DNA of 64,000 nt from an uncultured Gammaproteobacteria bacterium (GTDB lineage Bacteria > Patescibacteriota > Patescibacteriia > Patescibacteriales > GWC2-42-12): assembly GCA_964560005.1 (NCBI GenBank), contig CAZLKB010000003.1, positions 174,951 to 238,950 on the forward strand, read 5' to 3'. Below, in pieces: positions 4,338 through 60,544 of the stretch (within the stretch, counting starts at the first letter, position 1; the number at the start of each line of letters is the position of its first letter). A program made the position numbers and the translations under genes. The notes under the pieces were generated by a model. The model was not told the DNA's origin. It saw only the letters and a program-made list of their open reading frames with translations, and did not search any database.

Positions 4338-5303
4338 CTACTTTTTTTCCCCCACCCCTCCTTCGTAAGGAATATAAATATCATCTTTCATAATATTAAT
4401 TTCGGGAATAACTTTTACCGAATCAACCCAGCCGATCGCCCCCGGCCAACTGATTTCAATAAATCTTTTTTCGCCGGACATAAAATCGTTTAAAGTATAA
4501 TGGTTTACATTTACCAGCTCGCCGCCGCCGTAAAGCAGAATCGCGAAGCCGATATCCCAATAATTATAAGCCGTATGATTAGTCGCGTTGAAACTCAGCT
4601 GGTTTAAATTTAACTTTTCGGATAATGGGCTTGAATTCGAGGGCGTGAACTTAATATCAGCGCTTTCAATATTTAAATGCTCCTGATAATATTGATTCCA
4701 ATCGGAAATTTTATGCTGATCAATCCTCTGCCAGCTGATGTTTTCCATAATCAGCTGGGCTTGATCCGGCTCGTAAGTAAAATCTTGAGCCAGGGAAAAG
4801 AAATATTTAGTTTCTCCGGGCAGTATAAAACCCTTGGCTTTCGGCGTCTGAAGCTCGGCGGCAATAAAATAATAATCAAACTCCACCCACCATTTCTGAT
4901 TCTCGTTGGTCAACTGGGCGTAGAGATCATATTTTTTATCAGTTGATCTCAAAATGCCGATCGGTGCGATAGACAACGGCTTGGCGCTAATTTGTAAAAT
5001 ATAATCATGGCCGATGCTGTTGGTTTCAACTAATTGTTTCACTAATATACTGTCTTCGTTCATCCCGCGGGCTAAATAGTAAGCAAAGCCATAAATAGAA
5101 TAAGTCCAAGAAACCACGCCGACTAAAATTAAAAAACCATAGAACAATTTTCTGAATAATTGCTTATGTTCAACATACCATAAGCCGATTTCCAGCTGTT
5201 TGGTAGTCACTCCCTCGGGTCCGCTATAATTTTTCAGCTTGGCTTCAATCTCTCTTTGTTTAATTTGTTCTTGATTTTGATTAATACTTTGTTGGTTATC
5301 CAT
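4338..5303 (-). CDS. Hypothetical membrane protein
   Basis: 321-aa ORF, polar N-terminus, TM segment(s), large C-terminal domain; no motif recognised. Confidence 0.6.
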   Translation of the reverse strand: MDNQQSINQNQEQIKQREIEAKLKNYSGPEGVTTKQLEIGLWYVEHKQLFRKLFYGFLILVGVVSWTYSIYGFAYYLARGMNEDSILVKQLVETNSIGHDYILQISAKPLSIAPIGILRSTDKKYDLYAQLTNENQKWWVEFDYYFIAAELQTPKAKGFILPGETKYFFSLAQDFTYEPDQAQLIMENISWQRIDQHKISDWNQYYQEHLNIESADIKFTPSNSSPLSEKLNLNQLSFNATNHTAYNYWDIGFAILLYGGGELVNVNHYTLNDFMSGEKRFIEISWPGAIGWVDSVKVIPEINIMKDDIYIPYEGGVGEKK

Positions 5304-19128: not shown

Positions 19129-19215
19129 GCCGATGTGGTGAAATTGGTAAACGCGCACGACTCAAAATCGTGTGGCTTAACGGCCTTGTGGGTTCGAGTC
19201 CCACCATCGGCACCA
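19129..19215 (+). tRNA. tRNA-Leu (anticodon CAA), class II with long variable arm, CCA encoded
   Basis: Acceptor GCCGATG/CATCGGC, anticodon arm CACGA-CTCAAAA-TCGTG, variable arm GGC..GCC, T arm GTGGG-TTCGAGT-CCCAC, 3' ACCA. Confidence 0.93.
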
Positions 19216-58790: not shown

Positions 58791-59444
58791 ATGCAAAAAA
58801 TAATTGAAAAATCGGTCAGCCTGCTTATTATGACTCGGTTGAAAATCAAACCGGACGGTCCGGAAGAATTGGTAGCCGTACTTCAACGGCGAGGAGAGTT
58901 TAATCACGAAACTATGGGACCGGAGTCGTGGCCCGGCGTTGACCAGCTCACGGTTCATGGGAAAATCAAGAATAGCGAAAGCGACAAGGGCGCGCTTTGC
59001 CGCGAAACCCGGGAAGAACTGGGAGGAGACTTCGTCAGTGGCAAACTGGCCTGGGAGGCAATCACCGCTAATATGATTGAAATCGGCCGGGTGGAAAAAC
59101 CCGATAAAGTCATAGTTCACTACGCTATTGAAGTTTTAGCTCTGGCTTTGCCGTTATTCCGTCTTAACTCTTCCACCGGCGGTCTGCGGCTAATCACGAA
59201 GTCTGATCTATCTGACATCCAGGCGGTTCCTAACTGGAACTGTAATAAAACGGACGGAGTCTACGCCAGAAGGACCTTCGCCATGTTTCCGGACGAGATC
59301 AAGGCGCTGAAACAAGCCTTCACCATCTTCGACAACCGGACAACTGCAACTCCTTGCGCAGAAGTTATTGAGGATGCTGTGCTCGCAGGACATCTACGCA
59401 AGGTGGCGCAAGTGTCATTAAACCCAACGCCATCGGCCGCTTGA
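58791..59444 (+). CDS. Nudix hydrolase family protein
   Basis: Complete Nudix box G-x5-E-x7-RE-x2-EE-x-G: GKIKNSESDKGALCRETREELGG. Confidence 0.85.
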   Translation: MQKIIEKSVSLLIMTRLKIKPDGPEELVAVLQRRGEFNHETMGPESWPGVDQLTVHGKIKNSESDKGALCRETREELGGDFVSGKLAWEAITANMIEIGRVEKPDKVIVHYAIEVLALALPLFRLNSSTGGLRLITKSDLSDIQAVPNWNCNKTDGVYARRTFAMFPDEIKALKQAFTIFDNRTTATPCAEVIEDAVLAGHLRKVAQVSLNPTPSAA

Positions 59445-59452
59445 TAAACACG

Positions 59453-59489
59453 CCGCAATGATTGGAAAACCAATTCTTGCGGTTTTTTT
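59453..59489 (+). terminator. Rho-independent terminator
   Basis: ccgcaa..attgg aaaa ccaat..ttgcgg followed by T7. Confidence 0.85.
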
Positions 59490-59640
59490 ATTTTTGCATT
59501 ATCTTAATTAAGAAATAATTTTGTCTTCTTAAAATTTTCCTTATCATTTTCTACTACCTGCCGGTTTTCCGGAGATTTTGGCATAAGTTTATTCAGTTTA
59601 AAATAGTTATACCGATATTATACCATTTATCCCGCTAATA

Positions 59641-59886
59641 AAAAAACGGGTGACTTTGATTTAATTTCTCAAGGTTACCCGTCTGGGCTACTTATTGCTT
59701 GCGTCTGCAAGCAACCCCTCCCATCATGCCCAAGGAGGGAGTCGCCGGACAGCACGTCTTAATTGTTGTTATTGTTGTTTGATCTGTACATAAAATAGGC
59801 GCCTTTTTAATGAGCCATACTTCACTTTAAGGTTAATACAACTAACCCTCGTGGATCGTTTAACCCTCGTGGATCGTTGTTCCGTT
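59641..59886 (-). ncRNA. Candidate about 245-nt structured small RNA of unknown class
   Basis: Own promoter (59893-59921), tandem 18-nt repeat forming ACGA-loop hairpins, 8-bp hairpin ttgcttgc-agac-gcaagcaa, terminal hairpin plus T6; no ORF longer than 10 codons. Confidence 0.4.
59843..59878. repeat. Perfect tandem direct repeat, 18 bp x2
   Basis: taaccctcgtggatcgtt taaccctcgtggatcgtt. Confidence 0.95.
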
Positions 59887-59892
59887 ATTTTG

Positions 59893-59921
59893 ATAATAGC
59901 ACAGCTCTTTTTTTCTGACAA
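59893..59921 (-). promoter_or_regulatory. Candidate promoter of the small RNA
   Basis: On the - strand: TTGTCA - 17 nt - TATTAT, starting 20 nt after the stop of the upstream gene. Confidence 0.5.
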
Positions 59922-59941
59922 GGCTAAGATTACAGGCTAGA

Positions 59942-60544
59942 TTAATACAGCGCCATTTCTTCCGAGCTGATATTAAAAATTTCTTTGCCGAAATAATGCG
60001 TCCTTAACTCCGCTAAATTCAAAATATGGTGCTTGCCGCCTTTAACGATTTCATAGACTCTTATCTCTCCCCGCTGGCGAATTAGCTGGCCGTTTAAATG
60101 TCCGCGCGTCTGATATTTAGACAGCTCTTCCGCTGTAGTTTTTATAATCGCCCGGCCTCGGTATTTCTCCAGCTCTTTTAAATTCGCGATCTGTTTTTTC
60201 GCTTGGTCTTGGATAATATAAATTTTACGATCACCGGCCCGCAGTAAAGTCCCGTCCGGATAAATTTTTTCGCCTAAAACCCGCGTATCGGCCGCGACCG
60301 GCCGAATTTCCGCTGTCTGGTTCTCGCTAAGCTGGCTGGCCGGCTGATTCTGTATCGGTAATATACCCGACCCGCCGCTATTTTGAATTATCGGCGCCGG
60401 CGCGATTATAACCGGCTCTTCTACCGGCGGATTATTTCCGGACACTGCGCCGGGGTTAGTGCTGATTGAACCGGTAATTTCCGAGGCGCCGGCGCCGGAA
60501 GAAAAAAACATGGATAGAATAATAACCAATAATACTTTTTTCAT
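59942..60544 (-). CDS. Secreted hypothetical protein
   Basis: Signal peptide MKKVLLVIILSMFFSSGAGA; 200 aa; no family recognised. Confidence 0.6.
   Translation of the reverse strand: MKKVLLVIILSMFFSSGAGASEITGSISTNPGAVSGNNPPVEEPVIIAPAPIIQNSGGSGILPIQNQPASQLSENQTAEIRPVAADTRVLGEKIYPDGTLLRAGDRKIYIIQDQAKKQIANLKELEKYRGRAIIKTTAEELSKYQTRGHLNGQLIRQRGEIRVYEIVKGGKHHILNLAELRTHYFGKEIFNISSEEMALY

Follow-up and report, generated by a model that had tools for sequence, protein, structure and literature searches.

All coordinates below are positions in the window, the whole 64,000-nt stretch of DNA that was analysed. By direct reading, the stop codon (TAA) of a secreted-protein gene lies at 59944-59942 on the minus strand, and between it and the T-run of the same gene's terminator sits an insert of about 270 nt of non-coding DNA (roughly 59925-59655, minus strand) that, judged from comparison with relatives, is lineage-specific. 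Past the T-run come the promoter and the remnant of an HD-domain gene, followed by a convergent Nudix-like gene. In the 5′ to 3′ direction of the minus strand, the features of this region are the following.

59921-59944, minus strand: near-tandem duplication of 12-13 nt over the secreted-gene stop codon, GTATTAATCTAGCCT / GTAATCTTAGCCT (TRF, period 12, 1.9 copies)
59893-59921, minus strand: sigma-70-like promoter TTGTCA-17-TATTAT with a TG extension (TGcTATTAT), 10 of 12 consensus matches
59838-59880, minus strand: predicted long imperfect hairpin in which repeat copy 1 pairs with copy 2 around an AAAC loop (-15.8 kcal/mol)
59843-59878, minus strand: perfect tandem duplication of two 18-nt copies, AACGATCCACGAGGGTTA (TRF and direct reading)
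59829-59835, minus strand: UAACCUU, site A, complementary to the AGGGUUA of either repeat copy (direct reading)
59790-59825, minus strand: weak A/U-rich hairpin around a GGCGCC palindrome, holding the AUG of the mini-ORF (MFE and centroid structures)
59759-59791, minus strand: ten-codon ORF, MYRSNNNNNN and stop, ATG to TAA (direct reading)
59715-59741, minus strand: GC-rich hairpin A, CTCCCTCC/GGGAGGGG (CUCCCUCC, 11-nt loop, GGGAGGGG; reading and folding)
59695-59714, minus strand: hairpin B, TTGCTTGC-AGAC-GCAAGCAA (UUGCUUGC-AGAC-GCAAGCAA), with eight perfect pairs (reading and folding)
59671-59690, minus strand: UAGCCC...UAACCUU, in and just before the terminator 5′ arm, complementary to the repeats
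59640-59683, minus strand: intrinsic terminator, an interrupted hairpin (59683-59646) with T7 (59646-59640), -14.2 kcal/mol, z = -4.5
59617-59639, minus strand: extended -10 promoter of the former HD-domain gene, ATTAGCGGGATAAATGGTATAAT, outside the RNA and conserved in relatives
59504-59584, minus strand: internally deleted remnant of the HD-domain gene, with N-terminal and C-terminal matches to relatives
59453-59482, both strands: bidirectional terminator hairpin common to the Nudix-like gene and the HD remnant, conserved in relatives

Among relatives, the ancestral order at this locus is the secreted-protein gene, a short terminator, a TGGTATAAT promoter, the HD-domain gene, sometimes a MazG gene, and a convergent Nudix gene; the presence of HD and MazG varies, and Nudix is convergent throughout. 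The secreted-protein homologues (56-61% identity) are followed by short spacers (106 nt in relative L009, 110 nt in L041, 85 nt in L010 and 112 nt in the P0002 contig), none of which holds any insert-like sequence; at the position of the insert, these relatives have a terminator of about 40 nt only. In a three-way alignment of the window with L009 and L041, the extra block falls between the stop region and the T-run. Homology to both relatives fades just past the stop-codon duplication, which marks the left edge of the extra sequence, and the T-run with the sequence after it is homologous to their terminator tails, whereas the terminator stem is not. The element was absent at every syntenic locus compared (reached through 16 secreted-protein and 27 Nudix-like homologues; 12 contigs), and in none of the sampled relatives is the secreted-protein gene separated from HD or MazG by another gene. 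The TypA protein of the source genome is the sole member of its 90% cluster and the databases hold no close relative, so that only distant relatives were sampled and the absence of the element therefore excludes conservation only among relatives whose secreted protein is at most 61% identical.

The sequence-only reading had placed nothing downstream on this strand except a convergent Nudix cassette. That was wrong, as a TGGTATAAT promoter (59625-59617, minus strand) and the HD-gene remnant lie directly past the T-run. The T-run together with ATTAGCGGGATAAATGGTATAAT is 87.5% identical to L009 over 32 nt (E = 0.001). About 18 initial codons of the HD gene are kept (MPKSPENRQVVENDKENF...), with TTATGCCAAAATCTCCGGAA identical to L041, MPKSPE being the start of the L041 HD protein, and ATGCCAAAATCTCCGGAA identical to the start of the HD gene in that relative; the final codons, EDKIIS* at 59527-59508, are in a different frame, and DKI(F/I)(S/T)* fits the HD C-termini of L041 and L043. 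The bidirectional terminator past the remnant shares 77-84% identity with L043 and L042. What the window retains of the ancestral frame is thus the terminator T-run, the next promoter, and the first and last HD codons. By these matches, the internal deletion of the neighbouring HD-domain gene is documented, and the locus, as read from its comparison with relatives, has recently lost genes. Because the relatives keep Nudix in the ancestral order (it is the convergent neighbour in L010, L042, L043 and L044), the Nudix gene is, on this comparison, an old neighbour and not an inserted cassette. The earlier proposal of an orphaned riboswitch or attenuator whose gene had been displaced by Nudix finds no support in this gene order; the lost HD gene has its own promoter past the terminator, and L009 and L041 keep HD with a 106-110-nt gap and no such leader.

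Searches for homologues of the insert covered RNA families, genomes, metagenomes, mobile elements and proteins. Rfam cmscan, the check that the sequence-only reading had recommended, matched no family to the element: with 4227 models at the gathering threshold, the sole match in the window was a tRNA at 19129-19212, and at E <= 10 there was nothing relevant on 701 nt and no match on the 71-nt repeat stretch, sub-threshold matches being at chance level (AS-pc01, 25.8 vs 79; SNORA58, 19.3 vs 75). A tmRNA or tRNA identity was ruled out by ARAGORN, which finds none at the element. The exact 18-mer gave seven single matches across 185,579 species genomes (the source genome not among them), all in unrelated phyla and at chance level, and the nine loci returned by a degenerate tandem pattern in JGI metagenomes were rejected as GGATCCACGAG microsatellites or unrelated GC-rich repeats, with no homologues among them. 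Pattern scans of viral contigs yielded nothing beyond chance or unrelated matches, BLAST against phages and plasmids gave no match to the element, and the window holds no paralogous copies, terminal inverted repeats or mobile-element ends. The element most likely lies outside any conserved RNA class. At the protein level, tblastx against all relatives, including their HD, MazG and Nudix genes, produced no match to the insert, a 44-aa frame peptide had 0 matches among 1.84 billion representatives, and none of the six small ORFs (26-50 aa) of the spacer was called as a gene in 15 billion proteins, a look-up from which the 10-codon ORF was excluded as too short. That mini-ORF is present as first described (59791-59759, minus strand), its Asn codons (59779-59762) being a perfect 9-nt duplication in two copies; no clear Shine-Dalgarno sequence precedes its AUG, and it is most likely not a gene. 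On these searches, the insert is non-coding and without a credible ORF.

The promoter, situated 20 nt past the secreted-gene stop, was confirmed by direct reading and by tools, with TG preceding its -10 element, and transcription is predicted to start near 59886. Across the window, seven sites have TG and match the consensus at 10 or more of its 12 positions; five of the other six are intergenic and correctly oriented before gene starts, a high hit rate at real gene starts for this promoter class within the window. Because the insert has no terminator before 59646, it would be transcribed as a 3′UTR of about 290 nt on the secreted-protein mRNA. The strong extended -10 promoter probably fires too, which would give an RNA of about 240 nt sharing the mRNA terminator, and an independent transcript of this size from its own promoter (roughly 59886-59642) is plausible. 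The promoter-to-terminator anatomy of a non-coding unit, as originally read, holds, with the hairpin and T7 serving as the first terminator of the upstream gene.

A hairpin does stand where the sequence-only reading had put the terminator, its run being T7 and not T6. The stem (GACGGGU-A-AC-C-UUGA ... UCAA-A-GU-C-ACCCGUU) is non-canonical: it either closes a 19-nt loop or is interrupted, with two A.C mismatches. A consensus terminator scan did not call a terminator at 59640-59683. The stem pairs better on the plus strand (-22.4 kcal/mol); an RNA from that strand was considered for this reason and rejected, since neither a promoter nor a U-tract is found there. Hairpins A (59741-59715) and B (59714-59695) were both recovered as read. 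The predicted RNA consists of the long 5′ hairpin, the weak A/U hairpin, an unpaired CA-rich stretch, the two GC-rich hairpins and the terminator. As a whole, the 250-nt stretch out-folds 200 of 200 shuffles (z = -3.3; -3.4 in a second run), and its overall stability is about equal on the opposite strand (z = -3.1).

Inspection of the 18-nt tandem repeat (59878-59843) confirmed it as perfect, and no further copies were found in the window at up to three mismatches, where the chance expectation is 0. The predicted fold of this domain is the single long hairpin, its stem lengthened by flanking ACAAC/GUUGU (pair probabilities 0.5-0.87) and strand-specific by virtue of G-U pairs, the plus strand reaching only -8.9 kcal/mol (z = +0.5). 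The twin GAUCC-ACGA-GGGUU hairpins of the sequence-only reading can be drawn but are not the predicted fold: at -7.4 versus -15.8 kcal/mol they are 8.4 kcal/mol worse than the long hairpin, their tetraloop closing pairs have a probability of 0.01-0.02, and the twin fold has a probability of about 4e-7 in the ensemble. The same reading had the two copies competing for a single downstream UAACCUU. TAACCTT does stand at 59835-59829 with the complementarity described, and the duplex of the repeat domain with site A (-13.0 kcal/mol) is equalled or bettered by 1% of shuffles, but the pairing probability of site A in the ensemble is only about 0.1. The idea that this layout looks like a switch is not supported, because an 18-nt duplication yields such a layout automatically and the predicted fold differs. 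Further downstream, UAGCCC and UAACCUU each complement the GGGUUA of one repeat copy. No other part of the transcript partners the repeat domain as well as these words do (joint duplex -16.9 kcal/mol), a value that 1.1% of shuffles match in a post hoc test. This pairing is not formed in the MFE structure; the UAGCCC...UAACCUU segment is a possible long-range competitor of the terminator.

Taken together, we consider it probable, if only modestly so, that the element is a lineage-specific extra sequence of about 270 nt in a gene-losing locus, likely young, transcribed as a 3′UTR and probably also as an RNA of about 240 nt. Three tandem duplications fall within about 190 nt, those of 18 nt and 9 nt being perfect and the third matching at 91%, and the apparently switch-like repeats and the Asn6 mini-ORF would be recent products of slippage (18 nt, 9 nt and about 12 nt, two copies each), not design. 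Most likely the unit arose recently and is either neutral or has a purely local function. Counted against this reading are a promoter that is unusually good for accidental sequence, GC-rich hairpins that are conspicuous in an AT-rich spacer (with the fold z-score of -3.4 from the second run), and repeat complementarity to UAACCUU and the terminator 5′ arm that beats about 99% of shuffles. Such strong complementarity would fit a selected regulatory design, and the match of the repeats to the terminator 5′ arm is the weak hint of a switch that remains.

Among the alternatives, a functional, lineage-specific small RNA embedded in the 3′UTR, with its own promoter and sharing the mRNA terminator, deserves the most attention, though we judge it unlikely. 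Its proposed mode of action is base pairing in trans, with the unpaired CA-rich AUCAAACAACAAUAACAACAAUUAAG as one possible site, or the binding of a protein to its 5′ hairpin. A promoter of a type found mostly at real gene starts in the window, an intrinsic terminator, a significantly stable fold with a strand-specific 5′ hairpin, a long unpaired A/C-rich segment between structured domains and the lack of a credible ORF all speak for it, while no conservation, target or partner protein was identified, the element is absent in all sampled relatives, overall stability is similar on the opposite strand, and its perfect internal duplications point to change that is very recent and unconstrained. 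Known 3′UTR-embedded small RNAs of this kind, such as DapZ in Salmonella and MicL in E. coli, have their own promoters and share the terminator of the parent mRNA; they are conserved, act on known targets and bind Hfq. The element resembles them in a promoter at or after the end of the coding sequence, a shared intrinsic terminator, a length in the range of about 100-300 nt and the absence of a credible ORF, and it differs in being unconserved among the relatives compared and in having its promoter past the stop codon, inside sequence that relatives lack.

A cis-acting conditional terminator, in which a ligand or protein selects between repeat pairings and so controls transcription downstream, is a good deal less probable. 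In the states proposed for it, repeats paired with each other or with 59835-59829 would allow termination, and repeats paired with the terminator 5′ arm would give read-through. The arm is indeed the best partner of the repeat domain at -16.9 kcal/mol (about 1% of shuffles are equal, and likewise for site A), and it offers each repeat copy a complementary word of its own. The antiterminated state is nevertheless strongly disfavoured, as it costs 7.5 kcal/mol in addition to opening the 5′ hairpin of -15.8 kcal/mol, and 15% of shuffles do as well as the antiterminator that prefix folding yields. The sequence downstream offers nothing to regulate, being no more than a gene remnant that has a promoter of its own; the element is missing in relatives whose HD gene is intact, no Rfam family matches it, and the complementarity test was made post hoc.

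We give equally little credence to the reading of the unit as the shell of a lost gene, comprising promoter, leader, first codons, last bases and terminator after an internal deletion, the leader having possibly been that of an attenuator or riboswitch. The adjacent HD gene shows exactly such a remnant (promoter, about 18 first codons, last codons), the locus gains and loses genes among relatives, both perfect duplications are divisible by three (18 and 9 nt), and the layout is that of a promoter, a 95-nt leader and an AUG. No frame, however, shows any protein similarity, no single frame spans both duplications, no relative carries a gene in this place, ahead of HD or MazG, the AUG has no Shine-Dalgarno sequence, and the Asn run is a simple 9-nt duplication. 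Seen beside the remnants that internal deletions leave behind in reduced genomes, the likeness lies in the gene-less promoter, leader and terminator at a locus with a proven recent deletion and variable gene content, yet the HD remnant has clear homologues and the insert has no identifiable ancestral gene. Leader-peptide attenuators such as trpL, hisL and pheL likewise have a short ORF with a run of one codon, here six Asn codons, followed by hairpins and a U-tract terminator. In such attenuators the leader ORF is translatable from a ribosome-binding site, and antiterminator and terminator helices exclude each other according to where the ribosome stands. When the element was tested as an attenuator, the candidate leader ORF showed an AUG and the six Asn codons, the AUG lying in a predicted hairpin without a clear Shine-Dalgarno sequence, and the alternative pairing of the terminator 5′ arm with the post-ORF sequence gained -9.7 kcal/mol, which 15% of shuffles match. 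Unlike those attenuators, the element has no regulated biosynthetic or tRNA-synthetase gene downstream, only the HD remnant, which has a separate promoter; the run of Asn codons is a slippage duplication of 9 nt, and the element is missing where relatives keep the downstream gene.

Several classes built on repeats were also compared. Perfect tandem direct repeats in a terminated non-coding transcript recall the type III toxin-antitoxin RNAs, of which ToxI has 5.5 copies of 36 nt, but the element has only two copies of 18 nt and no toxin gene follows. ANTAR dual hexaloops were rejected, as the loop would read CACGAG and so lack the A conserved at position 1, and CsrA/Rsm sponges, TRAP sites and type III antitoxin repeats do not fit in motif or copy number. 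That the twin ACGA units, with three segments complementary to them (UAACCUU at 59835-59829, and UAGCCC and UAACCUU of the terminator 5′ arm), might form a new kind of ligand- or protein-controlled terminator switch, a reversed-polarity cousin of guanidine-II that arose by recent duplication, strikes us as very improbable; if true, it would be an RNA switch caught at birth in an uncultivated bacterium.

Least probable of all, and barely credible, is a guanidine-II-like (mini-ykkC-like) sensor whose two ACGA-capped hairpins kiss upon binding a small cation. Guanidine-II RNAs are translational switches directly before a gene (SugE-like transporters, guanidine carboxylases). The class is defined by ACGR tetraloops, one on each of two hairpins, with an inter-hairpin linker of 7-40 nt (PMC5558903), and below each tetraloop are two conserved G-C pairs, 5′-GG ACGR CC-3′, the closing pair being conserved without covariation (PMC5558903, PMC10351892). 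The likeness to RF01068 is that two identical, short, tandem ACGA-tetraloop hairpins can be drawn; against it, both copies read 5′-CC ACGA GG-3′, with polarity reversed relative to the invariant 5′-GG...CC-3′, the linker is AAAC (4 nt against 7-40 nt), and the predicted fold is one long hairpin, the twin fold being as rare as given above, with no Rfam match to the 71-nt stretch even at E <= 10. No Shine-Dalgarno sequence or gene follows the second hairpin, the nearest AUG being 51 nt on and opening the 10-codon ORF ahead of the terminator and the remnant, and the transporter or carboxylase context is absent. Membership was therefore rejected on closing pairs, linker, context and covariance model.

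In practical terms, it would be wrong to list the element among riboswitches, attenuators or conserved structured RNAs, and the story of a displaced gene gives way to the documented internal deletion of the HD gene. If the RNA is real and functional, it would add another lineage-specific 3′UTR small RNA from a poorly studied, uncultivated lineage, and possibly represent a very young RNA gene built by insertion and slippage.

Two convergent genes are separated by a 497-nt spacer (59445-59941), which holds the candidate small RNA (59641-59921, − strand), and nearly all the features that a sequence-only reading had listed for it (promoter, repeat, TAACCTT, ORF, hairpins, terminator) are present when the − strand is read.

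Features of the spacer and its flanking genes
59942-60544, − strand: secreted-protein gene (200 aa, signal peptide, no Pfam match)
59944-59942, − strand: its stop codon TAA, by direct reading
59921-59893, − strand: promoter TTGTCA-17-TATTAT with TG before the −10, beginning 20 nt past the stop
59878-59843, − strand: perfect tandem repeat, 18 nt x 2
59835-59829, − strand: TAACCTT
59791-59759, − strand: 10-codon ORF, MYRSNNNNNN
59741-59715, − strand: hairpin A
59714-59695, − strand: hairpin B
59683-59646, − strand: interrupted hairpin, followed by T7
58791-59444, + strand: Nudix-like gene (217 aa; weak NUDIX match, E = 0.004)

Databases hold no close relatives of this genome: the secreted protein, the Nudix-like protein and TypA are each the sole member of their own 90% cluster, and the nearest secreted-protein homologues are 56-61% identical. 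The locus was compared across contigs carrying homologues of the secreted or Nudix-like proteins. In two of these, L009 and L041, the spacer from the secreted-gene stop to the start codon of an HD-domain gene measures ~106-110 nt, and only a small hairpin of ~40 nt stands ahead of the terminator T-run. At the position of that hairpin the window has ~270 nt (roughly 59925-59655), which take in the promoter, repeats and mini-ORF as well as hairpins A and B and the current terminator stem. At the nucleotide level this insert resembles none of the relatives' loci. It has no second copy or terminal inverted repeats within the window and no match in phages or plasmids, and where genome, metagenome and viral collections were scanned by pattern, chance-level or unrelated matches alone came up. 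The degenerate pattern matched long microsatellite-like GGATCCACGAG arrays (period 11) in four JGI metagenome contigs (L019, L020, L023, L026); in L022 it met GACCCACGAGGATCG in five spaced copies, and in L024 a tandem of 16 nt, GATCCACGAGGGTTCG / GACCCACGAGGGTTCG, none of them related to the window. Past the terminator of a homologous secreted-protein gene, L003, from a relative (GCA_041643215.1; L003 positions 4640-4760), carries GC-rich palindromes, CCCTCTCC-TAATTA-GGAGAGGG and CCCCGC-AATG-GCGGGG, which resemble hairpin A in style but lack detectable sequence homology to it.

One assembly (L001) is 100% identical to the window over the entire spacer, and a second, independently assembled version of this sequence (L002, an SRR12133403 contig) ends right after the tandem repeat (window 59821); judged by their agreement, the insert did not arise as an assembly artefact in a single run. 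Besides the 18-nt repeat, a perfect 9-nt x 2 duplication forms the Asn6 run of the mini-ORF, and a third, near-tandem duplication of ~12 nt covers the secreted-gene stop codon. Three tandem duplications inside ~190 nt, two of them perfect, point to recent, unconstrained change. The − strand also carries three TAGCC and two TAACC words in ~300 nt (59685-59690, 59922-59926, 59933-59937, 59829-59835 and 59671-59677), against ~0.6 TARCC words expected; all five are complementary to GGGTTA of the repeat, which may reflect duplication history or selected pairing.

Nothing had been thought to lie downstream on the − strand except a convergent Nudix cassette, and this proved wrong: a promoter and a gene remnant follow the T-run.

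HD-gene remnant and shared terminator
59504-59639, − strand: remnant region, with promoter and first and last codons kept
59625-59617, − strand: conserved extended −10 promoter TGGTATAAT of the former HD gene
− strand: first ~18 HD codons, MPKSPENRQVVENDKENF
59527-59508, − strand: last HD codons, EDKIIS*, in another frame
59453-59482: bidirectional terminator hairpin CCGCAAgAATTGGttttCCAATcaTTGCGG, with A-runs and T-runs at its flanks

The ancestral terminator T-run and ATTAGCGGGATAAATGGTATAAT are kept (87.5% identity with L009 across 32 nt, E = 0.001), and TTATGCCAAAATCTCCGGAA is identical to the HD gene start of L041, MPKSPE... opening both proteins. A junction somewhere in 59567-59531 leads into GAAGACAAAATTATTTCTTAA, whose product EDKIIS* agrees with the ends of the HD proteins in L041 and L043, ...QDKIFS* and ...QDKIFT*. 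Because promoter, start and C-terminus all match relatives, the 26-aa ORF at 59584-59504 is, on sequence grounds, what an internal deletion has left of an HD-domain phosphohydrolase gene. Its start agrees at 20/20 nt with that of a relative whose adjoining secreted protein is only 58% identical, and such near-identity to distant relatives suggests that the deletion is recent. The HD promoter may still drive a ~170-nt transcript into the conserved bidirectional terminator, which directly follows the remnant and is common to the Nudix gene; this hairpin keeps 77-84% identity in relatives that share only 64-71% identity in the Nudix-like protein. The insert cannot be a leader that the lost HD gene left behind: a promoter of that gene's own lies downstream of the terminator, and the element is missing from relatives in which the HD gene is intact.

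Gene content of the locus in relatives
L041: secreted gene, HD gene, MazG
L009: secreted gene, HD gene
L043: HD gene convergent with Nudix
L044, L046: secreted gene, MazG, convergent with Nudix
L042: MazG convergent with Nudix
L010: secreted gene directly convergent with Nudix, 85-nt spacer

Overall the locus runs from an LTD-domain gene through the secreted-protein gene, a short terminator, the TGGTATAAT promoter, the HD-domain gene and a MazG-like gene to the convergent Nudix-like gene, with HD and MazG varying in presence; the Nudix-like gene is thus the ancestral convergent neighbour rather than an inserted cassette. Taken with L009, L010 and L041-L046, the interval 58791-60544 stands out among relatives as a hot spot where genes are gained and lost.

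As there is no terminator between the secreted-gene stop and 59646, transcripts of that gene must, by this reasoning, traverse the insert as a ~290-nt 3′UTR. A perfect promoter (TTGACA-18-TATAAT, 12/12; 62018-61989, − strand) stands 32 nt ahead of where the LTD-domain gene starts and is the probable driver of the operon that this gene forms with the secreted-protein gene; a second 12/12 site lies at 11032-11005 (− strand). The insert's internal promoter is credible. Sites with at least 10/12 consensus matches are intergenic in 26 of 42 cases (16% of the sequence is intergenic), five of the six other such sites that also have a TG extension are correctly placed upstream of a gene start, and the conserved HD promoter shows extended −10 promoters to be in use in this lineage. 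From this evidence a separate ~240-nt RNA, from ~59886 to ~59642, is likely.

That such an RNA is a functional local sRNA is a reading we take seriously and consider doubtful. The 250-nt stretch is more stable than 200/200 shuffles (z = −3.3; −3.4 in a second run), and its opposite strand is nearly as stable (z = −3.1), a consequence of the palindromic form of hairpins A and B and of the terminator. Strand specificity is clear only in the 5′ repeat domain (−15.8 on the − strand versus −8.9 kcal/mol). There the twin ACGA-capped hairpins of the sequence-only reading are not the predicted fold (−7.4 kcal/mol; closing-pair probability 0.01-0.02): the repeat unit is self-complementary (GAUCC...GGGUU), so the two copies pair with each other, in a predicted single long imperfect hairpin (−15.8 kcal/mol) with an AAAC loop and a stem lengthened by flanking ACAAC/GUUGU. 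On the + strand the terminator stem (59646-59683) forms 14 pairs without a mismatch, two of them G-U (−22.4 kcal/mol); on the − strand, on which the T-run lets it act as a terminator, it has two A.C mismatches (−14.2 kcal/mol). The better + strand pairing is explained neither by a promoter nor by a U-tract on that strand. The proposed Rfam search gave no family for the candidate: the sole Rfam 15 match in the whole window is a tRNA, the region yields chance-level matches at E ≤ 10, the 71-nt repeat stretch yields zero, and ARAGORN finds no tmRNA there.

A conditional terminator is improbable. Prefix folding offers the terminator's 5′ arm an alternative partner adjoining the mini-ORF stop codon, a gain of −9.7 kcal/mol that 15% of shuffles equal. 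The repeat domain can form a duplex with UAACCUU at 59835-59829 (−13.0 kcal/mol, equalled by ~1% of shuffles), and its best partner in the transcript is the terminator 5′ arm, UAGCCC...UAACCUU (−16.9 kcal/mol, likewise ~1%), a complementarity noticed post hoc. This modelled complementarity is the sole observation that favours designed competition. The anti-terminated state of the supposed repeat-competition switch is strongly disfavoured energetically, and only a gene remnant lies downstream as a target.

We give equally little credence to the insert as the shell of another lost gene. Translated comparison with relatives, their HD, MazG and Nudix genes among them, shows no similarity; a 44-aa open frame over the GC-rich part has zero matches among 1.84 billion protein representatives, and none of six small spacer ORFs (26-50 aa) was ever called as a gene. 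The 10-codon ORF falls below the look-up length; its ribosome-binding site is not convincing and its AUG lies within a predicted hairpin.

A guanidine-II-like sensor is very improbable, and membership is rejected: that class is defined by ACGR tetraloops, two invariant G-C pairs below each loop (5′-GG ACGR CC-3′, closing pair without covariation), a 7-40 nt linker and a translational expression platform ahead of transporter or carboxylase genes (PMC5558903, PMC10351892), whereas the candidate has closing pairs of reversed order (5′-CC ACGA GG-3′) and a linker of 4 nt, is followed by no gene and draws no match from the covariance model.

The sequence-only interpretation was only partly right; its features are real, but its twin-hairpin structure and downstream statement needed correction. 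The best-supported reading, on balance a probable one, is of a young, lineage-specific non-coding insertion, which would be transcribed as an extended 3′UTR and probably also as a promoter-to-terminator RNA, with the repeat "switch" and Asn mini-ORF as by-products of slippage duplications. It would sit at a locus that is losing genes; HD, MazG and Nudix all being nucleotide-hydrolase types, this locus looks like a small, variable "house-cleaning" cluster.
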